In this document: piece after piece, positions 7,203-34,869 of the stretch
Layout of the letters: the number at the start of each line of letters is the position of its first letter
How positions within the stretch are numbered: the stretch's first letter is position 1
DNA from: Abditibacteriaceae bacterium
Lineage (GTDB): Bacteria; Armatimonadota; Abditibacteriia; Abditibacteriales; Abditibacteriaceae
Direction of reading: 5' to 3'
DNA: 34,869 nt
Assembly: GCA_031425655.1 (NCBI GenBank)
Contig: JANPJS010000044.1
Span: 1 to 34,869 of the forward strand
Program-made: the position numbers and the translations under genes
The notes under the pieces: generated by a model
Seen by the model: only the letters and a program-made list of their open reading frames with translations
The model's database searches: none
Told to the model about the DNA's origin: nothing

Positions 7203-7341
7203 TTTCAATAGAACACGGGGCTTCGCCATCCTGCCCAGAGGGCGCCCGAAACGACACAGATTTTCGCAGATCAATCCAAAGAAAAATCCGTGTAAATCCC
7301 CGCCGTTTCCGTGTAGGCGAAGCCTCCGTGTTCCATTGAAA
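7203..7341. repeat. ~135-bp palindromic MITE/REPIN-like element, copy 1 (contains 19-nt insert)
   Basis: Arms tttcaatagaacacgggg... / ...ccgtgttccattgaaa. Core gatcaatccaaagaaaaatccgtg is shared with the copy at 33444. Confidence 0.85.
7229..7247 (+). mobile_element. 19-nt mini-element, copy 1
   Basis: tcctgcccagagggcgccc; identical copies at 12417 and 28475. Confidence 0.7.
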
Positions 7342-7360
7342 AATTCGACTTGTCAAACCT

Positions 7361-8068
7361 ATGGCTAAAAAGTCAACTTCTCGCTCGAAATCGCGCCGAT
7401 TGAAAATTCTGCTGGCGCTGAACCTAATTTTGCTGGCCGGCGCCGGCTGGACGACGCGCAAAAATCCCGATTGGTGGCGTTTGCCGCTGCACGCGCTGGG
7501 TATTGATGTCACGCGGCGCGTAGCGGCTTCCGACGAATTAGCGGCGCGCATCGTTGACGCGGCGAAATCGCAGCAGGGCACCCTTTACAGCGCGGCCTAT
7601 GCGCAAATTGGCTATCCCGGCGGCGATGTGACTCCGCAAAAAGGCGCTTGTTCCGATGTCGTAGTGCGTGCCTTGCGCGGCGCCGGATACGATCTGCAAG
7701 CGCTGATTCACGATGACATTACGCGCAATTGGGCCGCTTATCCCAGTCACTGGGGTTTGGAACGGCCCGACGCCAACATTGACCATCGCCGCGTGCCCAA
7801 TCAGATGATTTTCTTCGCGCGCTGGGGCCAAAAGTTGTCGAATGAGCTGTCGGCGCAAACGCGCAAACAATGGCAGCCGGGCGACATCGTGTGCTGGAAA
7901 ACCGGCCCGCGCCGTTGGCATACGGGCGTGCTTTCCGACGGCCTGAATGCGCGCGGCTGGCCCTTAGTCGTGCATAACGGCAGCATTTGCGTCGAAGCCG
8001 ATTGCCTGACGCGATGGCCGATTATCGGGCATTATCGCTTTCCGCTTCGCGCGAAAGCAGGCGTCTGA
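7361..8068 (+). CDS. DUF1287 (YijF-like) exported protein
   Basis: YPGGDV...GACSDVVVRA, DANIDHRRVPN, WQPGDIV.W, HTG, VHN, IIGHYR motifs; N-terminal hydrophobic segment. Confidence 0.88.
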   Translation: MAKKSTSRSKSRRLKILLALNLILLAGAGWTTRKNPDWWRLPLHALGIDVTRRVAASDELAARIVDAAKSQQGTLYSAAYAQIGYPGGDVTPQKGACSDVVVRALRGAGYDLQALIHDDITRNWAAYPSHWGLERPDANIDHRRVPNQMIFFARWGQKLSNELSAQTRKQWQPGDIVCWKTGPRRWHTGVLSDGLNARGWPLVVHNGSICVEADCLTRWPIIGHYRFPLRAKAGV

Positions 8069-8188
8069 AAATGAGGCTGCGCGCCGCATTGAACTTGCAA
8101 TTTTCCGAAACGGGCGAAGCAAAAAATGGTTTAACCTACGCGCCTTATGGCTACAATAAGTTAAGTCATTTTTCAGGAGAAGTCCGAG

Positions 8189-8821
8189 ATGAAATTCCAC
8201 GTTTTTTCCTCTTTGCCGCGTCGCGCTTTCACTTTGATCGAACTTTTGGTCGTCATAGCGATAATCGCGCTGCTGGCCGCGATTCTGTTTCCTGTTTTCG
8301 CGCGTGCCCGCGAAAACGCGCGCCGCAGTTCCTGTCTGAACAACCTCAAGCAAATCGGGATCGGCTTCGCGCAATACACGCAAGATTACGACGAAACGCT
8401 GCCGGGCGGCGCGCCGTATTCGGCGACCGCTTTCGTGCCGGGCCACTGGGTCGGCGTGCCGGCGTCGCCGGGCTGCACGACCGCTTCGCCCTGTCGCCCC
8501 GACCTCGGTGCGCTGTTTCCCTATGTGAAAAGCAGTCAAATTTACATTTGTCCGTCCGATAGCCAGGGGCCGTTGAAGCGCCTGAGCTATTCGACGAACG
8601 CCGTCTGCTCGTTTCGCAGTCTGGCGGACGCCACGCAGTCCTCGAAGACGATTTTGCTGATTGACGAAGGCCCGTCACTCCAAGATGGTTTTCTGTCGTA
8701 TTCCAACCCCGCCGATTTGCCTTCGGTGATTCACCTCGACGGCACGAATTTCGGTTATCTCGACGGCCACGTCAAATCGCGGCGCCCCGATCAGGTGACG
8801 GGCGTGGATTTCGCATTTTAA
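8189..8821 (+). CDS. Prepilin-type N-terminal cleavage/methylation, DUF1559 / H-X9-DG protein
   Basis: [45 protein letters not shown] and C-terminal [15 protein letters not shown]; ggag RBS upstream. Confidence 0.93.
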
Positions 8822-8839
8822 CGCGGTATTCGAGGACGA

Positions 8840-8874
8840 AAACGGGGCGCCAAGCGGCGTCCCGTTTCGTTTTT
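8840..8874 (+). terminator. Intrinsic terminator after DUF1559 gene
   Basis: aaacggggcgcc-aagc-ggcgtcccgttt followed by a T-rich tail. Confidence 0.7.
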
Positions 8875-8927
8875 GGTTGCCTGAGCCAATCGAATTTCCC
8901 CGGCCCGGCGCTCCTCCAACTGGTGCC

Positions 8928-10880
8928 ATGAAACATCGCTGGCCGGTTTTTCTTGTTCTCTTTTGTTGGCTGGCGGTTCTGCTCGCGCCGCCGCTGCGGC
9001 TGGCTTTTTGGGCGCAGACTTTTCGGCCCGCGCCGCCGTATCGCGGCTTCGGCTACGGGCCGAGTTGGATGAATCCGGGCAGCGCGTCATTCTCTCCGCT
9101 GCCCGTTAATTCCGCCGATTTGGCGGTGCGGGCCATCGCTGTCGAAGAAGGCAAAGATGCGCAAGGCTACAACCAGAGCGACAATCTCAAAGCTGCCGGA
9201 TACAACGCGCTGTTTCGCAGCCGCCCCGACCTGCTTTGGCTGCGCGCCCGGCAATTGCTTTATCTGCGGCTTTGGATGAAATCGGGCCGTTTGGCCGGCG
9301 AGTTGGACGATGTGAATTGGGAAAAGCATCGTGCGCAGGGAGCGGCGTCGCCGGAGCGCGGCAAGGAGCCGGCGAACTTCACGGCGCGCGAATGGCAAAG
9401 CGCCGTCGCGGCGGCGCGCGAGGCGGCGCGTCGTGAGCCGGACAACGGTTTCTGGCAGTGGTGTCTGGCCGAATTTCTGCTTGACGGCGGGCGCGACGGC
9501 GAAGCGTTCGCGGCCTTGCGCGCGGCGGCATCAGCGCCGCGCTTTGACCGCTATGATCGTGAGTATCAAGCTGCGCGGCTGCGCGCCGAATCGGCTCGTC
9601 ATGGCCGCGCGCTGCTGCCCGAAGAAAAGCTGGTTTTCGCCGCCGAATCCTCCGTTTCCATCGCCGAGCAACCGACGGCGCGGCTCTTCGCGTGGCAGGC
9701 GCTCAAGGCCGAACGGCGCGGCGATCATCACACGGCGCTGGACATCGAATTGAATCTGGCCCGGCTCGGATTGCTCAGCGCCAGAGGCGCCTATTGGGAT
9801 GCACAGCGGCTACGCGGCCAAAATGTCATCGGCATCGCGCTGCGTTCGCGGCATCGCGTAAAGAGGCCGCCGGGCGCTTCTCGCAGGCTCACGCAGACGC
9901 AAAGCGCGCAGCGAAACGTGTCTTCGTTTTTGCCTTACGCCACCGCGCACGGCACGGCGGCGCAAGTCGCGGCGGCACGCGAGATTGCCGCGCGCTACGT
10001 TGATTCGGCGCGCGAAGGAGACCGGCTCAAAGGGTTGGCAAACTACGGCTTTGTGAACGGCGCCGTTTTTGTGCGAGTTCTGACGCTGAGTTGGGCGGCT
10101 TCGGCGACGTTGTGGCTGCTGGCGTTGGCGCTACCGCTGTGGCTGTTCGTGATGGCGCTGCGCCGCGCGGTGAGCGTGCCGGATGTGGAAATCGCCGCGC
10201 GCGACCGCAAAATCACTGCCGCGCTTGGCGTTTTCGTGCTGCTGGCGCTGGCCGCCGCCGTGCCGTCGGGACTGGGGTGGAATTACTTTCCGTGGGGCGT
10301 GTTGGCCTCCGACACGCAGCAGCCCGAAGCCTATCTCAAGATTTCCGAAGCGCTGCTCTGGCTGACTCCGTTCATCGCGCTGGCGCTGCTCAGTTGCTGG
10401 TGTGTGATCGCCGTCACGCTGCGCTTTGGCCGCGCGCCCAAAGCCGCAGGCGTCGCGGAGCCGCTGACGCTCGGCGATTGGCTAAATTTTGGCTGGGGCC
10501 TGCTTTTGGGCGCGGCGGAATTCGGGGCCGCCGTGTGGTGGCTGAACATTGCCAACTACGGCACCGGCCCTTATGTCGGCGAACTGGGCGCTTACGATTG
10601 GCGGCGTTTTCATCCGCTGTGGCCGCTGGCGGCGTTCGGCGTGACGTTGGCCGTTTCGTGGACGCGACTGCTGTTCTGCGCGCCGCATCGGCGGTCTTTC
10701 GCGTCCTATCGCCTGCGCTGGCTGCAAAGCGCGTTGGGCACGCTGATTGTGGCTTCCAGCGTGTTTTACTTGGCGTTCAACGTGGCGGCGCTGCCGCTGC
10801 GCGCCGTCGCGGACGCCGAAGTGAATCAATTGCTGCAACGCGGCGAAGTGGCGCTGATGCGGGAGAAAGCTGGACGTTGA
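8928..10880 (+). CDS. Uncharacterised membrane protein, paralog family member 4
   Basis: ATG at 8928 (ORF from 8877). Motifs EPDNGFW, LLPEEK, GDH, HPLWPLA, LLQRGE; most similar to member 1. Confidence 0.85.
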   Translation: MKHRWPVFLVLFCWLAVLLAPPLRLAFWAQTFRPAPPYRGFGYGPSWMNPGSASFSPLPVNSADLAVRAIAVEEGKDAQGYNQSDNLKAAGYNALFRSRPDLLWLRARQLLYLRLWMKSGRLAGELDDVNWEKHRAQGAASPERGKEPANFTAREWQSAVAAAREAARREPDNGFWQWCLAEFLLDGGRDGEAFAALRAAASAPRFDRYDREYQAARLRAESARHGRALLPEEKLVFAAESSVSIAEQPTARLFAWQALKAERRGDHHTALDIELNLARLGLLSARGAYWDAQRLRGQNVIGIALRSRHRVKRPPGASRRLTQTQSAQRNVSSFLPYATAHGTAAQVAAAREIAARYVDSAREGDRLKGLANYGFVNGAVFVRVLTLSWAASATLWLLALALPLWLFVMALRRAVSVPDVEIAARDRKITAALGVFVLLALAAAVPSGLGWNYFPWGVLASDTQQPEAYLKISEALLWLTPFIALALLSCWCVIAVTLRFGRAPKAAGVAEPLTLGDWLNFGWGLLLGAAEFGAAVWWLNIANYGTGPYVGELGAYDWRRFHPLWPLAAFGVTLAVSWTRLLFCAPHRRSFASYRLRWLQSALGTLIVASSVFYLAFNVAALPLRAVADAEVNQLLQRGEVALMREKAGR

Positions 10881-10938
10881 AGTGGCCCTTGTTTCGTTTT
10901 GCTTGTGCCGTTGGCAGGGGCGGGCTAATCTAAAATAC

Positions 10939-12405
10939 ATGAACGAACAAACCGTGCAGGAGGCGACCAAGCAGGCCGCGCATTTGATGCGTCCGTCGCC
11001 GTCGTATTCGATGACGCTGCGCATTGAATACGGCAACGCCGTGGGCATGATGGGACGCATTACTTCGGTCATCGGCGAGGCCGGCGGCGATGTGGGCGCG
11101 ATTGACATCGTGTCCGGCACGCGCGAAACCACCACGCGCGACATCACCTTTTCCGCCGCCGATTACGAACACGGCCAGGCGATTATCGCGGCTGTGCGTA
11201 ATGTCGAAGGCGTGGACATCGTGCAGGTCAGCGACCGCGTGTTCTTGCTGCACATCGGCGGCAAATTGGACATCACGCCCAAAGTGCCGCTCAAAACGCG
11301 CGACGATCTTTCGATGGCCTACACGCCCGGCGTGGCGCGTATCGCCCAGGCCATCGCTGAAGAACCCGGCGATGCTTATAACCTGACGATTAAGAAGAAT
11401 TGCGTGGCCGTTATCAGCGACGGCAGCGCGCTGCTCGGATTGGGCAATATCGGCCCGCTTGCGGCGCTTCCGGTCATGGAAAGCAAGGCGCTGCTGTTCA
11501 AAGAATTCGCGGGCATCAACGCTTTTCCGCTTTGCCTTGACGTGCAAAGCGACGACGAATTCGTGGCCGCCGTGAAAGCGATAGCGCCCACTTTCGGCGC
11601 GATTCACTTGGAAGACATCGCGCCGCCGCGCTGTTTCGAGGTCGAGCGGCGACTTGGCGAAGAACTCGACATTCCTGTGATGCACAACGATCAACACGGC
11701 ACGGCGATTGTGGTTTTGGCCGCGCTGATTAACGCGCTGCGCATCGTTCACAAGCAGCCGGCAGCCTTGAAAGTTGTGATTCACAAAGCCGAAGCCGCAG
11801 GCGTGGCAACCGCGCGCTTGCTGCGCCATTACGGCGTGCGCGACATCGTGATTTGCGAATCTCACGTCGTTTTGGATGCTGAACGGCCCGATTTAGCGCC
11901 CGCCGTCGCCGAATTAGTGCATCAAACCAATCCGCGCGGCGTGACCGGCGGCGTGCGCGAAGCGCTCGAAGGCGCCGATGTGTTTATGGGGTTTGGCGGC
12001 AAGCATTTGCTGTTGCCCGGCGACATTTCGGGAATGGCTAAAGATTCCATCGTCTTCGAGATGGCCTATCCGTATCCTGAAATCGAGCCGGATTCCATTG
12101 CAGGATTGGCGCGCGTGATTGCGACGGGCAAGAGCGATTTTCCCAATCAGATCAACAATATGCTGTGCTTTCCGGGCTTTTTTCGAGGTTTGTTAGATGC
12201 GCGTGCGAAGGGCATCAACGACGAAATGCGCTTAGCCGCCGCGCACGCCATCGCCGACGTTGTAGGCCGCGAAGAGCTTTCCGAAGATTACTTAATTCCC
12301 AGCGTTTTCGACCGCCGCGTTGCCCGCGCCGTCGCCAACGCCGTCGTCGAAAGCGCCACACGCACCGGCATGGCGCAACGCGCCTTCAAAACCAGCCTGC
12401 GCTAA
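10939..12405 (+). CDS. ACT-domain NAD-dependent malic enzyme homolog with degenerate cofactor and active-site motifs
   Basis: N-terminal ACT-like domain; LSMAYTPGVA, LGLGNIGP, LEDI, NQINN, FPG motifs. HND replaces HDD and HKAEAAG replaces xGAGAAG. Confidence 0.85.
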   Translation: MNEQTVQEATKQAAHLMRPSPSYSMTLRIEYGNAVGMMGRITSVIGEAGGDVGAIDIVSGTRETTTRDITFSAADYEHGQAIIAAVRNVEGVDIVQVSDRVFLLHIGGKLDITPKVPLKTRDDLSMAYTPGVARIAQAIAEEPGDAYNLTIKKNCVAVISDGSALLGLGNIGPLAALPVMESKALLFKEFAGINAFPLCLDVQSDDEFVAAVKAIAPTFGAIHLEDIAPPRCFEVERRLGEELDIPVMHNDQHGTAIVVLAALINALRIVHKQPAALKVVIHKAEAAGVATARLLRHYGVRDIVICESHVVLDAERPDLAPAVAELVHQTNPRGVTGGVREALEGADVFMGFGGKHLLLPGDISGMAKDSIVFEMAYPYPEIEPDSIAGLARVIATGKSDFPNQINNMLCFPGFFRGLLDARAKGINDEMRLAAAHAIADVVGREELSEDYLIPSVFDRRVARAVANAVVESATRTGMAQRAFKTSLR

Positions 12406-12500
12406 ATTTTTCACCGTCCTGCCCAGAGGGCGCCCGACGCAGAGGACGCCAAGAAATTCAATTCTTCTTGGCGTCCTCTGCGTCTTGGCGGTGAAAAATT
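12405..12500. repeat. Long palindrome between convergent genes (probable bidirectional terminator) interrupted by the 19-nt insert
   Basis: aatttttcaccg[insert]gacgcagaggacgccaagaa ... ttcttggcgtcctctgcgtc-ttgg-cggtgaaaaatt; 20-bp perfect inner stem. Confidence 0.85.
12417..12435 (+). mobile_element. 19-nt mini-element, copy 2
   Basis: tcctgcccagagggcgccc sits where the opposite arm predicts ccaa. Confidence 0.75.
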
Positions 12501-13179
12501 AAATAATCGCTGAATAGGAATAAAGGCGCCCGCCTTCGGGCACGATGGCGGCTTCGCGGCGCACCAAGTGCAACTGATAAAGCTTCGCCACGCGGTTGTT
12601 GCAGGCGGTCGCCGATTCGATTTTTAATGTGTCAGCGAGTTCGCGCACCGTGACTTGATAGCGATCCATCACCGCGCGCAGCGTGTCTACGAGATGCCCC
12701 GGCAAGCCGCCAACCACGCGCCATTCGAGATTCTGGCGCTCGTCGTCGAGTGCAAGACCACTCGGAGGGCCATCGGGATTTTCGGCCTGCGCTTGCAGCG
12801 CGGCGATGACTTCCGGCACCACACTTTGCGGCAGAACAAGGGCGGCGACTTCGCGGCGATGCAGCGCGACTTCGATGTTTTCCATCAAGGCTTCGCTCAG
12901 TTCGTCGTCGGCGACCGATAAAATCAGAAAACGGTCGGGGTATTCTTTGGCCGACATCCGCGAATACAGCGTGCCCAACGCTTCGTCGGCAAACGAATAA
13001 TCCATCATGTCTACGCCGCTGAAATCCAGAACCATCACGCCGCCCGGCGGCAAGCCGCGTAGCTGCGCGTCTAAGGCTTCCTGAACCTTGCGGCCCATAG
13101 GACGCATCGCCAGAATATTTCCAAATTCGCCTAACGATTGTGTTTTAACCTTACTTTCTCCCGCATTCTTGATTCTCAT
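12499..13179 (-). CDS. STAS-like (DUF4325-type) domain plus C-terminal winged HTH
   Basis: VLDFSGVDMMDYSFADEALG (STAS-like, Ser in the SFAD motif) and VTVRELADTLKIESATACNNRVAKLYQLHLVRR (wHTH). RBS gaaggag upstream of the ATG at 13179. Confidence 0.75.
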   Translation of the reverse strand: MRIKNAGESKVKTQSLGEFGNILAMRPMGRKVQEALDAQLRGLPPGGVMVLDFSGVDMMDYSFADEALGTLYSRMSAKEYPDRFLILSVADDELSEALMENIEVALHRREVAALVLPQSVVPEVIAALQAQAENPDGPPSGLALDDERQNLEWRVVGGLPGHLVDTLRAVMDRYQVTVRELADTLKIESATACNNRVAKLYQLHLVRREAAIVPEGGRLYSYSAII

Positions 13180-13224
13180 GGTGCTTCTCCTTCACTCATA
13201 TCACTGAAATTGACTCTAAGGAGC

Positions 13225-13253
13225 ATTATGCGCTGTGCGACAGACCTTGTCAA
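13225..13253 (-). promoter_or_regulatory. Near-consensus sigma70 promoter of the STAS/wHTH gene
   Basis: Minus strand reads TTGACA-17 nt-CATAAT, 46 nt upstream of the ATG at 13179. Confidence 0.7.
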
Positions 13254-13378
13254 GCCAAAAGCACAGGACACCTTGCACAACAGGGGGTTCAGGCGCGAAA
13301 ATTGTTACTACCAAGCGTTTTAGTCGCGTAGGAATTCGCTGCGACAGCGAATATCCGGCGACGTAAGGAATCGTTTTT

Positions 13379-14227
13379 ATGGCGACCGCAGAACCTTCTT
13401 CTTCTCAACCCGCAGGCTCCAAGCCTGCTTCCAAACCCGTCGCATCCGGCGCGGCTTCGGCTTCCAAACCGGGCGCGCCTCGTGCCGCGACGACGAATAA
13501 AGCGAGCGTGAGCAAAACTTCGGCAGCCCGCAGCGGTGTGGCAGTGAAAAGCGGCGCGGCGCGCAAGGCAAAAGCCGATACGCCGGACGTGCCGGTCAAG
13601 GCGTCGGGCACCGCGCAGGAAATCAGTCCGCAAATCGCGGCGATGGCTATTGGCGGATTGGTCGTGCTGCTTTTGGTCGGCTATATGGTTTTTGGCAGCA
13701 AGGGACGGCGCAAGCCGGTTCGCGTGACTGTCCCAACTTCCAATGGATTGACGACAAAGGTTCCCAGCGCCATCGCGCCTGCACCCGCGCCTGGAGCCGT
13801 CGCTCCCGTGGCGCCGGGCGTTAATCCGGTGGCGCCGGCTAACCCCATAGCGCCGGCCACGCGCGCGGCTGCGGGCGCAACAACATTTTCGGCACCGGCG
13901 CCAGCGCCGGCTCCGGCTTCCGTGGGGCCTGCTCCCATTGCGCCGGGCGCGGACGGTGGCACCGGCACGACAGCAACTACGGGCACCGTTCCGCTGCCAA
14001 ACCCGGTCATCGCACCGGCTCCCGCGCCGCCGGTGACAAGCGGCACCGGCGGGACGGTGGCAAGCGGAACTGGCACGACCGGCGCGACGACCGGCAGCGG
14101 CGAAGTCAAAGGCGGCGCCAAACCCGCCGCGCCTGCCGGCACGGGAAGCATCTCGGTTGGCGCCGGTTCTCGCGTGGCCCCGATCCGTGAAGATGACAAT
14201 AGCGCGGTCACGCCGCCGAAGCCGTAA
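13379..14227 (+). CDS. Low-complexity Ala/Pro/Gly/Thr-rich single-pass membrane protein
   Basis: Lys/Ser/Ala-rich N-terminus, one TM (IAAMAIGGLVVLLLVGYMVFG), Pro/Ala-rich tail; aagga RBS upstream and terminator downstream. Confidence 0.75.
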   Translation: MATAEPSSSQPAGSKPASKPVASGAASASKPGAPRAATTNKASVSKTSAARSGVAVKSGAARKAKADTPDVPVKASGTAQEISPQIAAMAIGGLVVLLLVGYMVFGSKGRRKPVRVTVPTSNGLTTKVPSAIAPAPAPGAVAPVAPGVNPVAPANPIAPATRAAAGATTFSAPAPAPAPASVGPAPIAPGADGGTGTTATTGTVPLPNPVIAPAPAPPVTSGTGGTVASGTGTTGATTGSGEVKGGAKPAAPAGTGSISVGAGSRVAPIREDDNSAVTPPKP

Positions 14228-14242
14228 ACATCACATAAAACC

Positions 14243-14282
14243 AACGGGCGCGCTCAGGAAACTGGGCGCGCCCGTTTCGTTT
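14243..14282 (+). terminator. Intrinsic terminator
   Basis: aacgggcgcgctcag-gaaa-ctgggcgcgcccgtt followed by tcgttt. Confidence 0.75.
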
Positions 14283-15831: not shown

Positions 15832-15847
15832 TTCAAGAAGGTGATTC

Positions 15848-16483
15848 ATGGTGGCGATGCCGCAGCGTGTAGCGAATTACATTACGGAAGAAGAATATCG
15901 AGAGTTGGAAATGAATTCCAACATCAAGCACGAGTATTTCGACGGCGAAATCTTCGCTATGTCGGGCGGCACTAACAAGCACGCAGAGATTAGCGGCAAT
16001 GTTTATCATGCTCTGCGAAATCAACTGCGTGGTAAATCGTGTCGGCCCGTCGGCAGCGACCAAATGGTTAAGGTCGAGGCGACAGGTTTAGGCACTTATC
16101 CTGATGTCTCGGTTTATTGCCGGGCGGCGCGCTTTGAAGGCAAAGGCGATCAAGCGCTGCTGACTCCGGTCGTTCTCGTTGAAGTGCTGTCGCCTTCGAC
16201 CGCAAGTTACGACCGGGGCGAGAAGTTCGATCATTACAAGCAGATGCCGTCGCTTTGCGATTACATCATTGTCTGGCAGGACTGCGTGCGCGTTGAGCAT
16301 TATCATCGCCTCGAAAATGGCGACTGGCTGCTGCATTCGGCGTGGACGCGCGACGAAACCATCGCGCTGGAATCTATTGGCGCTGTGTTGGCGCTCGCAG
16401 ATGTTTATGAAGACGTGGAAGCGCCGTCCGGCCCGCTTTTGCTGCGGCGCGACGAAGTTTTTCCCGAACTTGATGGCGCTTGA
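15848..16483 (+). CDS. Uma2 family endonuclease
   Basis: EEYRELE...KHEYFDGEIFAMSGGT..H, YPDVSV, VEVLSPSTASYDRGEKF..Y motifs. Confidence 0.93.
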   Translation: MVAMPQRVANYITEEEYRELEMNSNIKHEYFDGEIFAMSGGTNKHAEISGNVYHALRNQLRGKSCRPVGSDQMVKVEATGLGTYPDVSVYCRAARFEGKGDQALLTPVVLVEVLSPSTASYDRGEKFDHYKQMPSLCDYIIVWQDCVRVEHYHRLENGDWLLHSAWTRDETIALESIGAVLALADVYEDVEAPSGPLLLRRDEVFPELDGA

Positions 16484-16494
16484 TGGCGATGGAT

Positions 16495-16614
16495 AAACGA
16501 GAAGACGGGAAGGGCGGAAAGACGGGAAAACAACTTTGGATTTTAAACTGAAACAGGCCAAACCACTTTTTAAAATTTTCTTCCCGTCTTACCGCTCTTC
16601 CCGACTTCCCGTTT
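16495..16614. repeat. Inverted repeat built of ~8-nt units (GAAGACGG-like)
   Basis: aaacgagaagacgggaagggcggaaagacgggaa ... ttcccgtcttaccgctcttcccgacttcccgttt. Confidence 0.7.
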
Positions 16615-16668
16615 TAAAAACGCCAAAACCCTTGCCGCCGGTTTTCGTTAGAATTTAAGGCTGTTTAG

Positions 16669-18381
<1,713 letters not shown>

Positions 18382-18394
18382 AGGGGTTGAAACC

Positions 18395-18601
18395 ATGAAA
18401 TTAAAAGTTGAAACCGAGCGGGAAGATGATGGGCGATGGATAGCCGAAGTGCCGGAGTTGCCCGGCGTGTTGGCTTATGGCTCCACTTGTGAGCAAGCTG
18501 TCGCTTATGCCGAGGCGTTAGCCTTGCGTGTCATCGCGGAACGGCTCGAACACAACGAAGACGTGCCCGACATGGCCGGCCTCTTTTCGGTCGCGGCATG
18601 A
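18395..18601 (+). CDS. hicB: HicB family antitoxin (short form)
   Basis: MKLKVETEREDDGRWIAEVPELPGVLAYGST.EQA; ATG at 18395 after gaagggg. Confidence 0.9.
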   Translation: MKLKVETEREDDGRWIAEVPELPGVLAYGSTCEQAVAYAEALALRVIAERLEHNEDVPDMAGLFSVAA

Positions 18602-18810
18602 GCCAATGGAAATCAAGCAGGTCAAGACGTGTTCTGGCGGCGCTTCATAGCATTGGCTGGAGCATTAAGCGTCAAAGCGGCTCGCATCGCACGCTGGAGC
18701 GTGAAGGTTGGCCCAACTATGTGTTTTCCTTCCACGACAATGAAGAAATTGGGCCGGTCATGCTGGCACGCATTGCTAAACAAACAGGCTTGATGCCAGA
18801 TGATTTATGA
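18598..18810 (+). CDS. hicA: HicA family mRNA interferase toxin
   Basis: GWSIKRQSGSHRTL...FHDNEEIGPVMLARIAKQTGL; ATGA overlap with hicB. Confidence 0.92.
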   Translation: MSQWKSSRSRRVLAALHSIGWSIKRQSGSHRTLEREGWPNYVFSFHDNEEIGPVMLARIAKQTGLMPDDL

Positions 18811-18864
18811 ACGGCGACGGCTCGCTGACTTATAGACGACATTCGCCGCAGCATTGCCAAGTAA
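18810..18864 (+). repeat. Direct repeat copy 2 (degenerate duplicate of pyrG 3' end)
   Basis: aacggcgacggctcgct-gacttata-gacgacattcgccgcagcattgccaagtaa, 1 nt longer than copy 1. Confidence 0.9.
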
Positions 18865-21563: not shown

Positions 21564-21565
21564 AT

Positions 21566-26286: not shown

Positions 26287-26295
26287 TCAACTTTT

Positions 26296-26553
26296 TTTAA
26301 CCGCCGATGAACGCGGATAAACGCGGATTAAAAAGGGAAATGCTTGTGCAAATTCTCTCTCATGTTATGCAGTGGATGTGTTAAGCGGATCAACCCCTGA
26401 GGTATTGAGTCATTCTGAGTCCTGCCCAGAGGGCACCCGGAAGAATCTCGGCGCTTCGTGAATTTGCCTGCCTATCGCACTCCACTGCGTAAGGTGAATT
26501 CTCTGTCGTTCTAAAAATCTATCCGCGTTTATCCGCGTTCATCAGCGGTTGAA
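26296..26553. repeat. Long inverted repeat (AACGCGGAT units) enclosing nested elements
   Basis: aaccgccgatgaacgcggataaacgcggat ... atccgcgtttatccgcgttcatcagcggtt. Confidence 0.85.
26420..26438 (+). mobile_element. 19-nt mini-element, copy 3 (A variant)
   Basis: tcctgcccagagggcaccc inside gtcattctgag...gaagaatctc. Confidence 0.7.
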
Positions 26554-26578
26554 ATCCGGCTTTTGTTAGGAATAAATC

Positions 26579-28399: not shown

Positions 28400-28449
28400 A
28401 TTCTTAGAAGCTGTCTGAGAATAACCATTAATCTTGGGTTGAGCTGCTT

Positions 28450-28585
28450 TTCAATAGAACGCGGAGCTTCGCTATCCTGCCCAGAGGGCGCCCGAAACGG
28501 CTTTGAAGGCGCGGTTTGATCCAAATAAAAACCAGCGAAAATCCGCGCACAACGTCCGCGTAGCGAAGCTCCGCGTTCTATTGAA
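28450..28585. repeat. ~135-bp palindromic element, copy 2 (contains 19-nt insert)
   Basis: 25-bp perfect inverted repeat ttcaatagaacgcggagcttcgcta / tagcgaagctccgcgttctattgaa. Confidence 0.85.
28475..28493 (+). mobile_element. 19-nt mini-element, copy 4
   Basis: tcctgcccagagggcgccc sits where the opposite arm predicts cgcg. Confidence 0.75.
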
Positions 28586-28767
28586 GAATCGTGGTATTAG
28601 GTTGTAACGAATTCTCACACGGTTTCTTATGCTTAATCTACATTTCAACTAAATTTAAAATTCGTGGCGTATCGTGAAATCGGTTCCTCCATCCTCGCGC
28701 AATTGTTGTTCAGTGTAGCGCCGAAAGCGGGAACACAATGAGAGGTAAAAGGTGAACGATTTCCACA

Positions 28768-30144
28768 ATGAAGATTTTCAAATCATGGACGAATGGCAGC
28801 ACGAAGTCCCGCCCCGGCAGCGTTTGGGCTTGCTCGACACCATCGCGTGGCAACCGCTGCCATCGGCGCTCTACGACGCGCCGGTTCGCGGCACGACTCA
28901 TCGTCAGCGCCAGCGTGCTTTCGGTGGGTTCGGCTTGGCTGGGCGGTTGCGGCGGCGGCGGTAACGGCGGTAATGGCGCTCCGGCGGCGTTTCGTTCGGT
29001 AGCCACCTTTAATGTGCCCGTGCCCGGCGGTTCGGCGGAAATTGCCAGCGTCACGCCCGATGGCCGCACTCTGGTTTATACCGATGCCGGCGCCGGATTA
29101 GTTGGATTCGTCAATATCGCCGATCTTGGGGCGGTGTCTCAACTGGGCGCCGTCAACGTGGGCGGCGAGCCGACATCGGTGGCTATTTCTCCCAAAGGCC
29201 GCTTCGCTTTAGCCGTCATTGTGGGCGCGCCCAGCCGTCTGGCGGTCATTGATATCGCCACGCGCACCGTCGTCCGCACGATCAACCTGAATGGCCAGCC
29301 CGATTCCGTAACCGTCAGCCCCGATGGGAATTTCGCCGCCATTGTTATTGAAAACGAGCGTTCCGACGAAGATAATCCGCTTCCCAGCGCGCCTGCGGGG
29401 CGTTTGGTCATTGTAAATCTCAACGGCGAACCGGCCAACTGGACATTGCGCAACGTCAACCTTGCCGGCTTGCCGAATATGCGCTTCGCCAGCGATCCCG
29501 AACCGGAATTCGTAGACATCAATCGCAGCAACAAGGCCGCCGTCACTTTGCAGGAAAACAACGGTATCGTGATCGTTGATCTGGCATCGGGCACTGTCGA
29601 GCGCTCATTTTCCGCCGGTTCGACTACGCACGTCGCCGATTTGCAGGACAACGGCACCGTTTCTTTTACCGATACGCTGACGAACGCGCGCCGCGAACCG
29701 GACGGCATCGCGTGGACGCCAAATGGCAATCTCATTACCGCCAACGAAGGCGATTACAACCTTGATTTAGCCGCCGGACAGTTCACGGGTGGCCGCAACT
29801 TCACGATTTTTTCGCCGACCGGCGCCGTGCTTTTTGACGACAAGGGCGATCTGGAAAAAGCCGTAAACAGCGCCGGACGCTATCCCGACAGCCGCTCGGA
29901 CAGCAAAGGCAGCGAACCCGAAGGCGTCGAAGTGGCCACGCTGGGAGGCCGCAACTTCGCCTTCATCGCGCTCGAACGCGCCGATGCTTTAGCCGTTTAC
30001 CGCTTGGATAGCGAAACCACGCCGACCTTTGTGCAGATTTTGCCGACCGGCGATGCGCCCGAAGGTGTAGTCGCCATTCCTTCGCGCAACTTAGTCGTAA
30101 CCGCCAACGAAGGCGATGGCACGCTGTCGTTTTTCGCGCCGTAA
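28768..30144 (+). CDS. Choice-of-anchor-I / alkaline-phosphatase-associated beta-propeller, probable lipoprotein
   Basis: GQPD, ENE, DPEPE, TLQENN, TANEGD, SDSKGSEPEG, IALERA, APEG motifs; lipobox-like WLGGC. Start uncertain. Confidence 0.75.
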   Translation: MKIFKSWTNGSTKSRPGSVWACSTPSRGNRCHRRSTTRRFAARLIVSASVLSVGSAWLGGCGGGGNGGNGAPAAFRSVATFNVPVPGGSAEIASVTPDGRTLVYTDAGAGLVGFVNIADLGAVSQLGAVNVGGEPTSVAISPKGRFALAVIVGAPSRLAVIDIATRTVVRTINLNGQPDSVTVSPDGNFAAIVIENERSDEDNPLPSAPAGRLVIVNLNGEPANWTLRNVNLAGLPNMRFASDPEPEFVDINRSNKAAVTLQENNGIVIVDLASGTVERSFSAGSTTHVADLQDNGTVSFTDTLTNARREPDGIAWTPNGNLITANEGDYNLDLAAGQFTGGRNFTIFSPTGAVLFDDKGDLEKAVNSAGRYPDSRSDSKGSEPEGVEVATLGGRNFAFIALERADALAVYRLDSETTPTFVQILPTGDAPEGVVAIPSRNLVVTANEGDGTLSFFAP

Positions 30145-30168
30145 TCAAACAACTTTAATCCGATGTGT

Positions 30169-30203
30169 AACGGGCGACTCGCAAGAGTCGCCCGTTTTGT
30201 TTT
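30169..30203 (+). terminator. Intrinsic terminator
   Basis: aacgggcgactc-gcaa-gagtcgcccgttttgtttt. Confidence 0.85.
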
Positions 30204-30256
30204 GGCCTGCCATCTGTTTCTTGCTTCCCGCCTCTCGCCGTCTGTGAAATAATCCT

Positions 30257-31441
30257 ATGGGCATGAAGCCTGAAGAAACGCCCTCCGAAAACCCACCCGC
30301 CTGGCCGTCCGGCCAAAATGAAACACCTGCCGGCCTCGGCGTCGAACGCGGTCGCATTGACGCCATTGATGCCGAAATTCTGCGTTTGCTCAACGAGCGC
30401 GTGCAATGCGCACTGCGCGTGGGCGCCATCAAACGCTCGCAGGGCTTGCCGTTTTTCGACCCGTCGCGCGAGCGTGCCATCTACGAAAAGCTGCGCGCCT
30501 TGAATACGCAGATTTCCGGCGGAGCGGAAACGCTGCCGGCTTTGGCGGTAACGGCGATTTACCGCGAAATTATTTCGGCGTGCCGCAACGCCGAACATCC
30601 GGTGCGCGTGGCGTTTCTTGGGCCGTCGGGCACCAACACGCAGGAAGCCGCTGTGCAGTTTTTCGGCTCGGCCTTCACGCCGCTGCCCTGCGGCACGCCC
30701 GACGAAGTGTGTCACGCGGTGATGCGCGGCATGAGCGGCAAGGCTGAAGACAGCGATGCCGCCGATTATGGCGTGGTCGCCATCGAAAATTCGATTCACG
30801 GCCTGGTTTCGCCAACCTTAGATTTGTTAGCCGATTCTGCCGTCACGGTTTGCGCCGAAATTGAATTAGTCATTCACCATTGCCTGCTTTCTACCGGCGA
30901 TTTGGGCAGCATCACGACGGTTTATTCGCACGAACAAGGCTTGGCGCAATGCCGCACCTGGCTGCGAAACCATTTGCCGGGCGCGACTTTAGTTCCCGTC
31001 ACCAGCACGGCGCGCGGGGCCGAAATGGCCACGCGCGAACCCGGCGCAGCGGCGATTTCATCGGCTTTGGCGGCCAATATCTACGGATTGCAGATCGTCG
31101 CGGCCAATATCGAAGATTTAGCCACCAATCGCACGCGCTTTTTCGTAGTCGGCCCGCCCGAAAGCGCGCCCAAACCCAGCGGGCGCGATAAAACTTCCCT
31201 CTCGTTTTTAGTGCCGCACAAACCCGGCGCGCTCGTGGACGTGCTGGAAGTGCTGCGCCGTCACGGCGTCAATCTTTCGATGATTCAATCGCGCCCCAGC
31301 CGTCAGCAAGCGTGGGAATACCGCTTTTTCGCCGATTTGCAGGGCCATATGCAAGACGAAACGCTGCAAGCCGCCATCGCCGATTTGCAGGAACACACCG
31401 TCAGCTACAAAGTCATGGGCAGCTACCCGGAAGCGGCGTAA
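30257..31441 (+). CDS. pheA: Chorismate mutase / prephenate dehydratase (P-protein)
   Basis: RIDAIDAEILRLLNER, VAFLGPSGT, IENSIHG, SHEQGLAQC, NRTRF, ACT domain with QSRP. Confidence 0.96.
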   Translation: MGMKPEETPSENPPAWPSGQNETPAGLGVERGRIDAIDAEILRLLNERVQCALRVGAIKRSQGLPFFDPSRERAIYEKLRALNTQISGGAETLPALAVTAIYREIISACRNAEHPVRVAFLGPSGTNTQEAAVQFFGSAFTPLPCGTPDEVCHAVMRGMSGKAEDSDAADYGVVAIENSIHGLVSPTLDLLADSAVTVCAEIELVIHHCLLSTGDLGSITTVYSHEQGLAQCRTWLRNHLPGATLVPVTSTARGAEMATREPGAAAISSALAANIYGLQIVAANIEDLATNRTRFFVVGPPESAPKPSGRDKTSLSFLVPHKPGALVDVLEVLRRHGVNLSMIQSRPSRQQAWEYRFFADLQGHMQDETLQAAIADLQEHTVSYKVMGSYPEAA

Positions 31442-31549
31442 AGGAAGGATGAGGGATGAAGGCGGAAGGATGAAAATCGCCTGCGGCGCGCAATTCAACG
31501 GCGCGAAGCGCCCTTTTCATCCTTCATCCCTCCGCCCTCATCCCTTCCT
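31442..31549. repeat. Inverted repeat of heptamer units (GGATGAA)
   Basis: ggaaggatgagggatgaaggcggaaggatgaaaa ... ttttcatccttcatccctccgccctcatcccttcc. Confidence 0.8.
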
Positions 31550-31572
31550 AAAACCTGTCACACTTTCTTTTC

Positions 31573-33444
31573 ATGCCGCACGAATTTCCCCTTGTCGAAA
31601 CTCTTGAAGAAAACCTCCTGCCGCGCTCGCGCGGAGCGATTACGCGCGATGATGGCCGCGTTTGCATCGGGCGCGTCGGAGCGCCCGTCGCGCAGGAAGC
31701 GACCAGCGAATGCTTCACCTTCTGGGTGCCGCCCGATGCCCTCGTTGAAAAAACGCAGCTCGTAACGTGCGAAAGCCGCATCGCCGGGCAGGAATTTACC
31801 TTTTATGCCATCGTGGACGAAGTGCATCGCTCGTCGCGCAAGCGCAGCATGGGTCACGAAGTAGACGAAGCCGACGGTGACCTGACTTACGAGCCGCCTT
31901 TCGCCAGCGAAGGCTGCACCTGGGCCGAAGCCGCGATTTTACGCACCGACCCGCCGGTTTTTACGCCTCCGCGCGAACGCAGCGACGTTTTATTAGCGAC
32001 CGAAGCCGACGCTTACATGGCGTATCGCGCCGACGAAGTCGAGCCGCATAATCGTCTCAAAATCGGCCTGATTAAAAACGGCGGCGCGCAAACGGCGGGC
32101 GCCGGCATCATTGATCTGGCTTACGTTTTGGGCGAAAACGGCGGGCACATGAATGTCAACGGCGCCGCGGGACGTGGCACCAAATCCAGCTTTTTGCTGT
32201 TCGTCAACTACTTGCTTTTGCAGCGTGCGCGTGAAATGAAAGAAGCCGCGCCGTCGTCCGAAGACCGCTTGCGAATCGTGCCGATTATCCTCAATGTGAA
32301 GAATTACGATCTGTTTCACATGGATCGCGCCAGCAAAAAATTCGACGCGAAAAAGCATCTCGAAGCATGGCAATCCATCGGCATCAATGACCCGGCGGAA
32401 TTTAAAAACGTGACGTTTTACGCGGCGCAGCAGGCGGGCGGCACGATTCCGGTTCCGACTTCGGGCCGCGCCGATGTCAAGCCGTATAGCTGGAGTTTGC
32501 GAAACATCATGGAGCGCGGTTTATTTCCGTTTTTGTTCTCGGAATCCGACGCGCACGACGCCACTTTCGGCGCGCTTGTGATGGACATCGAAAACCTGCT
32601 CACGCACGAGAAAATCAACAACGACGGCAGCTTGACGCGCACTCTCAACGACAAGCCGCTGGGCGTGCAAGGCCCGACGTTTTTCGGCTTGCGCGAATGG
32701 GTCAAAGACCAATGCATGGGCGAAACCGACAAAGGTTTGCACGGCCATCAAAAGGGCACCTGGCGCAAATTATATCGGCGTTTATTGAAGCTGCTTTATG
32801 ACGGCAAAGGCGTTTTGCGCCTTGACGACGACAAGGGAAATCCGCTCGATATTGTGCGCGCCGACACCTGCGATCCGATTGTCATTGACCTCAATGCGCT
32901 TTCGGCGCGCCCCGAATTGCAGCGTTTCGTTGTCGCTACGATTCTGCGTCAATTAGTCGAATCGCGCACCGGCACCAACGCCATAAAAGGCTTAATTTAT
33001 CTGGTGACTTTGGACGAATTAAACCGCTTTGCGCCGCGCGGGGCACGCGATCCGATTACGCAACTGGTGGAATTGGTGGCGGCGGAAATGCGTTCGCAGG
33101 GCGTGATTTTGTTGGGCGCGCAGCAGCAGGCCTCGAAGGTGTCGGAGCGCGTTATCGAGAACTCGGCATTGCGCGTTTTGGGCAAAAGCGGCTCGCTGGA
33201 AATGTCGCAGCCCGTGTGGAGCTTTCTGTCGCAAAGCGCGCGGCGCAAAGCCGAAAACCTTTTGCCCGACGAAAAACTCCTTGTGCAGGACAACTTCCGC
33301 GAACCGATGCACGTTCGCGTGCCCTTTCCCACCTGGGCCATGAATCCGAACGAAGCGATTTCGCCCGCAACGCGGCCCGCTTCGCTAAACGGCGCTTCCA
33401 ACGGTGCGGCAACTGTAGATTACACCGCATTGTTTGAAGACTAA
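31573..33444 (+). CDS. herA: HerA-like ATPase/helicase (HAS-barrel N-terminus)
   Basis: HMNVNGAAGRGTKSS (variant Walker A), IILNVK..DL, LDELNRFAP (Walker B), MRSQGVILLGAQQQAS; directly upstream of sbcD. Confidence 0.8.
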   Translation: MPHEFPLVETLEENLLPRSRGAITRDDGRVCIGRVGAPVAQEATSECFTFWVPPDALVEKTQLVTCESRIAGQEFTFYAIVDEVHRSSRKRSMGHEVDEADGDLTYEPPFASEGCTWAEAAILRTDPPVFTPPRERSDVLLATEADAYMAYRADEVEPHNRLKIGLIKNGGAQTAGAGIIDLAYVLGENGGHMNVNGAAGRGTKSSFLLFVNYLLLQRAREMKEAAPSSEDRLRIVPIILNVKNYDLFHMDRASKKFDAKKHLEAWQSIGINDPAEFKNVTFYAAQQAGGTIPVPTSGRADVKPYSWSLRNIMERGLFPFLFSESDAHDATFGALVMDIENLLTHEKINNDGSLTRTLNDKPLGVQGPTFFGLREWVKDQCMGETDKGLHGHQKGTWRKLYRRLLKLLYDGKGVLRLDDDKGNPLDIVRADTCDPIVIDLNALSARPELQRFVVATILRQLVESRTGTNAIKGLIYLVTLDELNRFAPRGARDPITQLVELVAAEMRSQGVILLGAQQQASKVSERVIENSALRVLGKSGSLEMSQPVWSFLSQSARRKAENLLPDEKLLVQDNFREPMHVRVPFPTWAMNPNEAISPATRPASLNGASNGAATVDYTALFED

Positions 33445-33576
33445 AACTTTCAATGGAACACGGAGCCTTCGGCTACACGGAAACGACACGGAAGGCACAG
33501 ATCAATCCAAAGAAAAATCCGTGAAAACCCGTGTCGTTTCCGTGTCGGCGAAGCCGCCGTGTTCCATTGAAAGTTT
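33444..33576. repeat. ~135-bp palindromic element, copy 3 (no insert)
   Basis: aaactttcaatggaacacgg...ctacacggaaacgacacgg ... ccgtgtcgtttccgtgt...ccgtgttccattgaaagttt. Confidence 0.88.
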
Positions 33577-33592
33577 CACATTCTCGTAAAAC

Positions 33593-34869
33593 ATGAAAAT
33601 ACTCCATACCGGCGACTGGCACATGAACGACACGTTGGGGCGCGTGGATCGCTCGGCGGATATTTGCCGCTCGCTTGAACAAATTGCCGCTTATCTTGAA
33701 GAACATGAAGTGGACGTGATGATCGTGGCCGGCGACCTTTTTTCCGAACGCAGCCGGTTGGATCAAATGCGCGGCGCCGTCGGGGAAATTAAGCGCATAT
33801 TTCATCCGTTTTTAGAGCGAGGCGGCTCAATCGTCGCCATCAGCGGCAACCACGACCGCGAAGTATTTTTTGAAATGCTGCGCGATATGCTCGAACTCGG
33901 CGCAAGTGCGGCCAAAAGCGCGGACGGCGTTTTGCCTGGCGGGCAGGTGCATATCGCGCCGACTCCGCGCCTTTTAAAATTAGCCGGACGCGACGGCGTG
34001 CCGGTGCAATTTTTATTGATGCCGTATCCGACGGCGCGTCTCTATTTGCGCGATTCGGATGCGAAATATGACAACGTCGAGCAAAAGCATTTGGCGGTGC
34101 AAAGCGAATTTAAAAACGCGCTGGAACAATATAAGCAGCGCATAGATTCGTCGCTGCCGACGGTTTTAGTCAGTCATATTCATGTGCGCGGCGCGCAAAC
34201 GCACACGCTTTACCGCGTGACTGAAGTCGAAGACGTGATTTTCGAGCCGAGCGATATTCCGGCTTCGTGGGCTTATGTCGCTTACGGGCATATTCACAAG
34301 CCGCAAATGGCGATTCCCGGCGCGGCGCACGTTCGTTATTGTGGCAGCGTCGAACGTCTCGATTTCGCCGAGCGCGACGATGCCAAAAGCGTGGTTTTAG
34401 CCGAAATAAACCGCAGTGGTTTAGTCGGCGAGCCGCAGATTCTACCGCTGGAAACTTCGCCGATTTGGGACTTCGATATTACCGAACCAGAAACCGAAAT
34501 GCCGCAAATAGAAGCGACATATAAAGACGATCCGCAGGCGAAAAATGCCTTAGTCAAATATAAGCTGCGCTGGCAGCCGGGCAAGCATAACCGCGATGCA
34601 ATCTGCAAAGAAATAGATATTCTATTTCCGCGCTGGTATGCACGCGAATTAATAGAATTGGGCCGCGACGACATCGCGGTGTTTTATAAATCGCGCCGTT
34701 TGGATGACGTGGTCGGAACCGTCCGTGAATATCTGGGGCAGCAGTTAAATACGCATTCGCAGGGAAATGAATTGCAGGCGATGGCCGAAAGCATTTTAGT
34801 GGAATTTGCCGGCGCTTCGCCGGATGGTGCGGGGCCGGGTGCCCTTTGGGCAGGTTCCTCTTCCAAACA
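33593..34869 (+). CDS. sbcD: SbcD/Mre11 nuclease subunit (runs off the window end)
   Basis: Absent from the ORF track because there is no stop in the window. ATG at 33593 gives MKILHTGDWH, AGDLF, SGNHD, SH.HV, AYGHIH, YCGSVERLDFAE. Confidence 0.93.
   Translation, partial: MKILHTGDWHMNDTLGRVDRSADICRSLEQIAAYLEEHEVDVMIVAGDLFSERSRLDQMRGAVGEIKRIFHPFLERGGSIVAISGNHDREVFFEMLRDMLELGASAAKSADGVLPGGQVHIAPTPRLLKLAGRDGVPVQFLLMPYPTARLYLRDSDAKYDNVEQKHLAVQSEFKNALEQYKQRIDSSLPTVLVSHIHVRGAQTHTLYRVTEVEDVIFEPSDIPASWAYVAYGHIHKPQMAIPGAAHVRYCGSVERLDFAERDDAKSVVLAEINRSGLVGEPQILPLETSPIWDFDITEPETEMPQIEATYKDDPQAKNALVKYKLRWQPGKHNRDAICKEIDILFPRWYARELIELGRDDIAVFYKSRRLDDVVGTVREYLGQQLNTHSQGNELQAMAESILVEFAGASPDGAGPGALWAGSSSK
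34837..34855 (-). mobile_element. 19-nt mini-element, copy 5 (variant, reverse orientation, in the sbcD tail)
   Basis: gggtgccctttgggcaggt is the reverse complement of acctgcccaaagggcaccc. Confidence 0.6.

Follow-up and report, generated by a model that had tools for sequence, protein, structure and literature searches.

A 20-nucleotide hairpin found in place of five nucleotides within repeats of Abditibacteriaceae and Chloroflexota

How can one and the same sequence of about twenty nucleotides (nt) come to lie, with constant ends, inside repeats of quite different families? This question is raised by contig JANPJS010000044.1 of an Abditibacteriaceae bacterium (GCA_031425655.1), the whole 34,869-nt stretch of which is called the window below; it is contig C44 of a 5.98-Mb, 327-contig assembly (genome G000, 97% complete). 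A preliminary description of the window had reported a 19-nt sequence with a trailing G inside three different host repeats and had seen in it either a tiny mobile sequence or an excision scar. In our search of the window the 19-mer TCCTGCCCAGAGGGCRCCC matched the plus strand at 7229, 12417, 26420 and 28475 and, as a variant with two mismatches, the minus strand at 34837-34855; all five copies were thus re-found, a G followed each of them, and the three different host repeats could be seen on reading the loci. The TCCTGCCCAGAGGGCRCCC pattern gave five matches in the window and none in each of 100 dinucleotide-preserving shuffles. The results described below indicate that the unit is a 20-mer, H-CCTGCCCARAGGGCRCCC-G, in which H is T, C or A and rarely G. 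This 20-mer and its sister forms probably make up a family of mobile DNA elements, ultra-small and non-autonomous, that belong to the same kind as Nostoc's small dispersed repeats (SDR). A hairpin of 20 nt with more than 200 copies in the genome of a soil bacterium is apparently among the smallest mobile DNA known.

Exchange of five nucleotides for twenty

Searching the genome for the motif, we found it dispersed genome-wide, with 222 copies of the 18-nt core CCTGCCCRRAGGGCRCCC (113 forward, 109 reverse) and none of a reversed-pattern control. In an alignment of all copies the edges were sharp, each position outside the unit carrying less than 0.5 bit, and the base after the core (position +18) was G in 215 of the 222. 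For 213 copies, nine being left out as too close to contig ends, the 30-nt left and right flanks were searched separately against the genome and the matches were paired. When the element was taken as the 19-mer, the paired flanks stood 19 nt apart in 745 pair-instances, 4 nt apart in 402 and 5 nt apart in 23. When it was taken as 20 nt, 831 unique paired-flank sites were obtained, with gaps of 5 nt (471 sites), 20 nt (235), 6 nt (51) or another length (74). Moving the right boundary one base outward thus makes the trailing G part of the element and the loss 5 nt. The preliminary description had reported 4 nt as missing; a fixed short replacement without duplication stood, but the length is 5 and the swap is 20 for 5, not 19 for 4. 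The net gain per event is 15 nt, with no target duplication.

The replaced 5-mers have a strict first base. C stood first in 467 of the 471 empty sites and, when these were grouped into 39 flank clusters, in 39/39 of them; the fourth base was C in 24/39, and the fifth base varied over all sites (C233/G161/A51/T26). The 213 filled copies fell into 64 contexts by flank similarity, all with identical boundaries. Filled and empty alleles, as suspected from the window alone, do exist: a paralogous site with 5 nt was found for 141/213 copies, and in eight cases the two sites were identical over all 59 compared flank bases. Judged by this identity, the eight pairs would represent recent events.

The copies in the window illustrate this exchange, and the opposite arms of their host hairpins give the missing bases as CACG(G) at 7229, CCAA(G) at 12417 and CGCG(G) at 28475, which bears out the reported lack of target duplication. 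The copy TCCTGCCCAGAGGGCGCCCG at 7229..7248 (plus strand) has taken the place of CACGG in a long hairpin repeat (7202..7343), on its left arm; the repeat family is of the form TTTCAATrGAACACGG...GCTTCGC and has many paralogs. Its opposite arm, 7308-7343, reads ...cgtttc cgtg taggcgaagc... and so preserves the ancestral bases, and paralogous empty sites of 5 nt were found for this context elsewhere in the genome. The empty allele that had been reported near 33444 was confirmed in the host copy at 33446..33573, gctaCACGGaaacg, in which the unreplaced 5-mer CACGG occupies 33476-33480. The copy at 12417..12436 (plus strand), directly after the malic-enzyme gene, replaces CCAAG in the left arm of a second host repeat (12404..12500), a hairpin of the type TTCACCG/CCAAG/ACGCagaGgACGCC with octamer-like units, the right arm of which reads gcgtc ttgg cggtgaaaaatt. 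At 28475..28494 (plus strand) the 20-mer stands in place of CGCGG; the left arm that holds it belongs to another member of the hairpin-repeat family, the TTTCAATAGAACGCGGAGCTTCGCTA hairpin repeat at 28447..28587, a relative of the repeat at 7202; here the right arm reads gtc cgcg tagcgaagctccgcg, and nine paralogs carry CGCG.

The copy TCCTGCCCAGAGGGCACCCG at 26420..26439 (plus strand) lies in a third host (26299..26549), which resembles a MITE (miniature inverted-repeat transposable element) and has the inverted ends aaccgccgatgaacgcggataaacgcggat / atccgcgtttatccgcgttcatcagcggtt. The site is GTCATTCTGAG/CTTGC/GAAGAATC, and genome-wide this context is represented by 25 filled copies and 76 empty sites with CTTGC. 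The MITE-like repeat itself measures about 250 nt, with 30-nt inverted ends built from units CGCGGAT/AAACGCGGAT, and in public contigs it has relatives with the same ends and another interior (joints 26328/26520). The fifth copy, ACCTGCCCAAAGGGCACCCG, at 34836..34855 on the minus strand, is a variant with an AAA loop in a fourth host context, TTTGGAAGAGGA/../GCCCCGC. It is located in the 3' end of a metallophosphoesterase open reading frame (ORF) at the contig edge, and all other copies in the window are intergenic.

Structure, landing sites and distribution of the 20-mer

The main family is laid out as a variable base (T/C/A) and CC, then a hairpin of 4-5 base pairs (bp), (T)GCCC-ARA-GGGC(R), and finally the tail CCCG. 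At position -1, immediately preceding the core, T was found in 120 copies, C in 52, A in 46 and G in 3; over distinct contexts the spectrum of this first base was T33, C24, A21 and G3, and the remaining 19 bases were nearly fixed. Two internal positions were polymorphic for A and G: the loop (AGA 172, AAA 50), and the position after the stem (G 132, A 90), which can pair with the T preceding the stem as T-A or T-G. Sister forms were present in the same genome. A 19-nt form that has no T, TCCGCCCAGAGGGCACCCG, occurs in 25 copies (e.g. C103:4699, C186:20748), and a 24-nt form, H-CCGACCCGCAAGCGGGTGCCCCG, in 11 copies (e.g. C228:16384, C304:6792), some of which occupy the very site that the 20-mer takes in the same host repeat. 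A scan for CC-hairpin-CCCG revealed more sister families, including CCACCCGCAAGCGGGTTCCCG, with sizes of 19-24 nt and constant tails, and the sister stems differ by paired changes (GCCC/GGGC, ACCC/GGGT, GCCCGC/GCGGGC, ACCCGC/GCGGGT). Constant tails together with compensating stems are what one would expect to see if some machinery read a small hairpin whose single-stranded tails are fixed.

What does the 20-mer recognise in its hosts? The preliminary description had proposed structure rather than sequence. The hosts comprise several hairpin-repeat families, the MITE-like element, and octamer and heptamer arrays (e.g. CCCTCAT); neighbouring sites in one host may both be filled, giving tandem double 20-mers. 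Mirrored flanks within 300 nt were detected on both sides for 52 of the 213 copies, on one side for 80 and on neither for 81, against 0, 15 and 385, respectively, at 400 random sites. In 24 of the 52 both-flank cases the partner arm carried the original 5 nt, and in 22 it carried the element. The replaced 5 nt thus appear to be the ancestral sequence, the opposite arm still carrying them in 24 hairpin hosts. The element was found in the 5' (C-rich) arm on its own strand in 45 of these 52 cases, and the target strand is C-rich on either side of the insertion. The enrichment of inverted-repeat arms supports the structural part of the proposal, but the 81 copies with no detectable partner, the hits in heptamer arrays and the strict first-base C (39/39) speak against the exclusion of sequence. 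Hairpins would seem to be favoured as targets and not required, with one strict sequence requirement.

With respect to genes, 171/222 copies were intergenic, against about 12% non-coding DNA, the split resting on a crude ORF call by which 88% of the genome counts as coding. The orientation relative to flanking genes was 44 to 31, and no enrichment was found in convergent gene gaps (17/109 against a background of 458/2590); a role at terminators or mRNA ends is therefore unlikely. The net gain of 15 nt is a multiple of three, hence copies can sit in frame within genes. Some 20-mers were seen in CCCTCAT arrays deep in long ORFs (G000:C202:1429, C267:5874, C51:752 and C114:6609); these ORFs are putative, 355-985 amino acids long by the crude ORF call, and the additional 15 nt keep the frame.

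To see how far the 20-mer extends beyond this genome, we searched 41 related genomes for the core. It was present in all four species of the genus (222, 124, 23 and 48 copies). Of a second genus, four of six genomes carried it, with 18, 3, 2 and 4 copies, and of a third, one of two, with 2 copies. A further genus of the family (g2; 11 genomes) and other families of the phylum (16 genomes) gave no match, and among the 41 genomes the core was thus limited to three genera of Abditibacteriaceae. A wider scan of 185,579 species genomes gave at least 93 stretches, many of which were single in-gene matches in GC-rich bacteria, as by chance. Five metagenome-assembled genomes (MAGs) of Chloroflexota (Thermomicrobia, Thermomicrobiales, Chloroflexia, Herpetosiphonaceae) carried 17, 32, 14, 11 and 24 copies, with controls of 0, and these copies sit in C-rich palindromes and in CTCATTG heptamer arrays, where a loss of CATTG is implied. 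In three Thermomicrobiales MAGs (G042, G046 and G049; rows of G048 were excluded) we followed the repeat CCTCTC/x/CGATGGAGAG, for which 142 matches were listed and 30 further ones existed. Among the 142 matches listed, about 110 had a 5-mer as x (CATTG, CATCG or CATTA; TATTG in 3), 10 had the 20-mer ACCTGCCCARAGGGCRCCCG, 5 had a 19-nt variant and the other 17 had something different. To judge from these matches, it is the same element, with the same 20-for-5 rule and the same A/G variants, that occurs in the second phylum.

The preservation of the sequence across two phyla, including the same two A/G polymorphisms, and the excess of intergenic copies could also be expected of a non-mobile conserved motif, such as a protein or RNA binding site, a terminator or an uptake signal, that forms part of its host repeats or spreads by gene conversion only. 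We regard this as very improbable. The 20-mer breaks the palindrome symmetry of its hosts, it has the same boundaries in 64 unrelated flank contexts, filled and empty alleles occur with identical flanks, and neither the 44:31 gene orientation nor the convergent gaps point to a function at gene ends.

An IS110-family insertion sequence within the 20-mer

Could the 20-mer be the trace of a larger element? Nine contig ends of G000 read H-CCTGCCCAGAG followed by the insertion sequence (IS) ATTCTATGGTTGAAG... (C15, C58, C71, C97, C101 (5160-5552), C154, C205, C248 and C302), and nine others read ...CAACCATACAA followed by GGGCRCCCG and then the host flank (C65, C66, C70 (66800-67084), C88, C136, C170, C189, C212 and C220). 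These half-elements occupy the same host contexts as the solo 20-mers and correspond to about nine IS sites. The IS, which breaks the assembly, is known from 392 nt of one end and 168 nt of its left end, and the ORF leading off the longest IS end belongs to Transposase_20 (PF02371) of the IS116/IS110/IS902 family (E = 2.7e-16). Seen in the direction of the IS, its junctions read CGGGYGCC-CT-TGTATGG... and ...CCATAGAAT-CT-CTGGGCAGG, and the intact 20-mer reads CGGGYGCC-CT-CTGGGCAGG-D, with the CT core present at both IS junctions. The IS boundaries therefore lie inside the 20-mer, the outer ends of which are the same with or without the IS.

The left end of the IS contains two segments that resemble guides. 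GGGTGCCCT, at 50-58, equals the seven left-target bases plus CT in the same sense, and CCCAGAG, at 94-100, is the reverse complement of CT plus the five right-target bases; both segments occurred together in 3/2000 shuffles. The predicted fold places them on the 5' and 3' sides of one stem-loop with a 13-bp closing stem. For the bridge RNA of IS621, PMC11208160 describes a target-binding loop that has 8-9 nt on its 5' side that pair with the bottom strand and 4-7 nt on its 3' side that pair with the top strand; the CT core is within both pairings, and the natural targets are repetitive extragenic palindromic (REP) elements. In the predicted fold, the left-end segments of our IS appear to be laid out like such a target-binding loop. 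The A/G polymorphisms of the 20-mer would face U or G in the guides, so that all variants should be readable through wobble pairs. The IS thus resembles the IS621/ISPpu9/ISPpu10 type of IS110 element (Durrant et al. 2024, PMC11208160) in its Transposase_20 domain, in the CT core found twice, in its guide-like left-end segments of 9 nt and 7 nt and in having a small repeated hairpin as target. This comparison concerns the parasite of the mini-element and not the mini-element, and the splitting IS is seen from its ends only: a complete copy was found in none of the genomes searched, and the assembled ends stop short of the N-terminal DEDD domain and the donor-binding loop. No Rfam family was found on the IS ends.

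The presence of nine and nine contig-end half-elements in the contexts of solo 20-mers, with a Transposase_20 ORF leading off the IS end, would also be compatible with the view that the 20-mer is the joined ends or excision footprint of this IS and that solo copies are sites that the IS has left. We give this view very little credence. The CT core is duplicated within the intact target and the left-end guides GGGTGCCCT and CCCAGAG, on one stem-loop, match it, from which it follows that the 20-mer is the target of the IS and not its scar; moreover, excision of an IS110 element restores the target and hence cannot make a 20-mer in a new context. Close copies of the IS were found only in G000, G003 and G017; in G003 and G017 these are interrupted or broken up, and no 20-mer flanks the one in G017 (84% identity). 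G001, with its 124 20-mers, yielded no close copy, and G002 and the Chloroflexota carriers yielded distant homologues only (27-38% identity). The excision scar of the preliminary description is thus not supported, the 20-mer being abundant where no close IS was found. Its related suggestion that the 19-mer might equal joined IS ends fared no better: the halves do flank an IS, but at a duplicated CT core within the 20-mer. The 20-mer would accordingly serve as the landing site of an IS110-family IS, by analogy with the REPs of IS621 and ISPpu9, and the matching segments suggest that this IS has adopted the 20-mer as its bridge-RNA-specified target.

In G017 we also observed a 19-nt unit of mini-element architecture, TCCACCCAAAGGGTGCCCG, inside a related IS110-type transposase reading frame (locus L127, G017:C3:10030-13347). 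Mini-elements may thus also invade the IS.

Candidate enzymes, mechanism and known counterparts

Which enzyme could move the 20-mer? The genes of the window are ordinary (malic enzyme, formate-tetrahydrofolate ligase, CTP synthase, secretins, prephenate dehydratase) and include no transposase, as the preliminary description had already noted in finding no mobilising enzyme there. As candidates it had named an HUH/RAYT-type enzyme and, among gene classes that the motif might flank, reverse transcriptases; neither was borne out. Y1_Tnp gave six matches in G000, of which two are IS200-like and four RAYT-like, and each has flanking hairpins of its own; the RAYT-like genes (C12:4782-5123, C70:3418-3744, C100:112-465 and C37:30312-30569) are flanked by long hairpin repeats of their own. 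The 20-mer was found beside none of the six. The repeat next to the C12 RAYT-like gene (…ACGAAGTC/CGCCT/TCGCGGACT…) belongs to a host family that the 20-mer has invaded. Of the five carrier Chloroflexota MAGs, three (G041, G042 and G046), which may be incomplete, gave no PF01797 match. For reverse transcriptases, a search with RVT_1 (PF00078) found none in the 97%-complete G000, a fragmented assembly from which multi-copy genes can drop.

IS200/IS605 elements insert beside a fixed 4-5-nt target and delete no bases. That the 20-mer is of the REP type and owes its movement to an HUH tyrosine transposase (RAYT or IS200/IS605 TnpA), which would bind the hairpin and cut the single-stranded tails, is unlikely, although several features recommend this explanation. 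The hairpin with conserved single-stranded tails is what HUH enzymes act on, four RAYT-like genes with hairpin repeats are present and the 20-mer lives inside such repeats, and the target weakly resembles the element ends, its first base being C and its fourth C in 24/39 families. An IS110-family IS targets the 20-mer as such elements target REPs (PMC1525189). Against it stand the lack of association with any Y1_Tnp gene (0/6), the absence of a GT(A/G)G head, the three Chloroflexota carriers with no PF01797 match, and a left flank that is unconstrained and 5 nt that are lost, unlike IS200/IS605.

A reverse transcriptase that copies a small hairpin RNA at a nicked target by target-primed synthesis would explain one non-templated junction base. 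The variable base, which is A, G or T on the complementary strand, would lie at the 3' end of the copied 19-nt strand, and both internal polymorphisms are A/G, one of them keeping a T-A or T-G stem pair. In view of the negative RVT_1 search, with the limit just given, we consider this explanation extremely improbable.

It is likely, in our judgement, that the 20-mer is a mini-element mobilised in trans under the 20-for-5 rule; our confidence in any particular enzyme class is much lower. In the mechanism that we propose, a trans-acting enzyme would recognise the small hairpin with its single-stranded tails. The target DNA would be single-stranded or extruded and would receive two cuts, 5 nt apart, the left one 5' of the C, and the element would be joined in, with precise ends, where the 5-mer was cut out. 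C-rich strands able to fold or slip would be the preferred substrate. The variable first base would be the junction base, copied unfaithfully; on the complementary strand it is one of A, G and T and hardly ever C, which resembles non-templated addition and from which this step of the proposal is drawn. It is possible, if not quite probable, that this amounts to an undescribed transposition chemistry, in which an enzyme acting in trans, one that Abditibacteriaceae and Chloroflexota share or have exchanged, swaps a C-first 5-mer for a 19-24-nt hairpin cassette on single-stranded DNA.

Several observations weigh against mobility under this rule or narrow what can be drawn from it. No enzyme was identified and no de novo insertion was seen. 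A gap of 6 nt instead of 5 nt occurred at about 6% of the sites (51/831). Much of the copy number is due to the amplification of host repeats that were already filled, for example the 25 copies in the one MITE-like context, and the true number of insertion events is nearer 60-110 than 222. The first base partly tracks the preceding host base, A following C in 16/21 contexts, and given this correlation it may not be simply untemplated. The species of the genus share only about 75-80% identity in genes, or about 65-80% when the genes of the window are compared, and their intergenic repeats do not align. A filled/empty variant at 7229, 12417 or 26420 was not found in the public contigs, in which rare variants are invisible. 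These contigs break at the mini-element, and in the G000 assembly many copies lie 50-90 nt from contig ends; mini-elements thus break short-read assemblies.

If the proposal is true, three layers of parasitism are nested here: the mini-element has invaded REPIN-/MITE-like repeats and has in turn been invaded by a bridge-RNA-guided IS110 element that is programmed for it. The rule is strict and countable (20 in, 5 out, first base C), and any candidate enzyme must reproduce it. The occurrence in two distant phyla with widely differing copy numbers makes phylogenetic profiling for the enzyme possible; together, the rule and the spread across phyla make the mechanism testable. A bridge-RNA IS programmed to a mini-element would mean that 20-nt repeats can become stable 'landing pads', and would provide a natural guide-target pair for IS110 studies.

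To our knowledge, the mobility of the SDRs (SDR1-8) of Nostoc punctiforme and related cyanobacteria, reportedly described by Elhai et al. in 2008, was never explained, and we know of no mobilising enzyme for them. A likeness to these very small repeats had been suggested in the preliminary description, and our results strengthen it: the 20-mer occurs inside heptamer arrays and a MITE-like element and alongside further copies of itself, and stems in its family vary by compensatory changes. SDRs are likewise said to be dispersed units of about 20-27 nt with sharp ends, to nest in tandem heptamer arrays, mini-transposons and each other, and to form sequence-distinct families that share a hairpin with compensatory changes. 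They differ in their hosts, cyanobacteria as opposed to Abditibacteriaceae and Chloroflexota, and the likeness is one of description. The 20-mer differs further in that a dedicated IS110-family IS targets it. SDR5, according to PMC4390886, inserts precisely between the 3rd and 4th bases of the highly iterated palindrome HIP1, whereas the 20-mer overwrites 5 nt beginning with C. Nostoc small dispersed repeats are also mentioned in PMC3116915. By its strong likeness, SDR would be the closest known kind.

REPs are a further point of comparison. We know of no 5-nt replacement by REPs. Like REPs and REPINs (PMC2817692; Bertels and Rainey 2011, PMC3116915), the 20-mer is a short GC-rich extragenic hairpin of high copy number that is targeted by IS110 elements, REPs being preferred targets of IS110-family ISs according to PMC1525189 and PMC11208160. 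Nunvar et al. (2010, PMC2817692) state that RAYT genes are always flanked by two inverted REPs and that REPs carry a GT(A/G)G head. The ends of the 20-mer are H-CC and CCCG, or CGGG and GG-D on the other strand, none of which is GT(A/G)G. Unlike REPs, the 20-mer is found inside other repeats, rather than standing alone or in doublets of fixed spacing, and it flanks no RAYT gene.

MITEs are longer than 50-100 nt and have terminal inverted repeats and target duplications, and palindrome-associated transposable elements (PATEs), derived from IS200/IS605, insert beside a fixed short target. The 20-mer shares with both that it is non-autonomous, structured and multi-copy. Assignment to the MITEs was rejected on the grounds that there is no target duplication and 5 nt are lost, and assignment to the PATEs on the grounds that the left flank is unconstrained and 5 nt are replaced. 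The 20-mer core CCTGCCCAGAGGGC was not printed anywhere in the literature searched, and no relevant work on repeats of Abditibacteria was among the top-ranked papers listed. A literature search on small dispersed and heptamer repeats likewise gave nothing of relevance.

A family of putative restriction endonucleases, Uma2 (PF05685), was also considered as the enzyme on account of its expansions and rejected: it has 11-32 matches in each of the 11 g2 genomes, none of which carries the element, and there is no correlation. Uma2 matches number 18 in G000 and as many as 47 in other members of the phylum, and show no relation to the mini-element. One gene of this family lies in the window, at 15848-16483.

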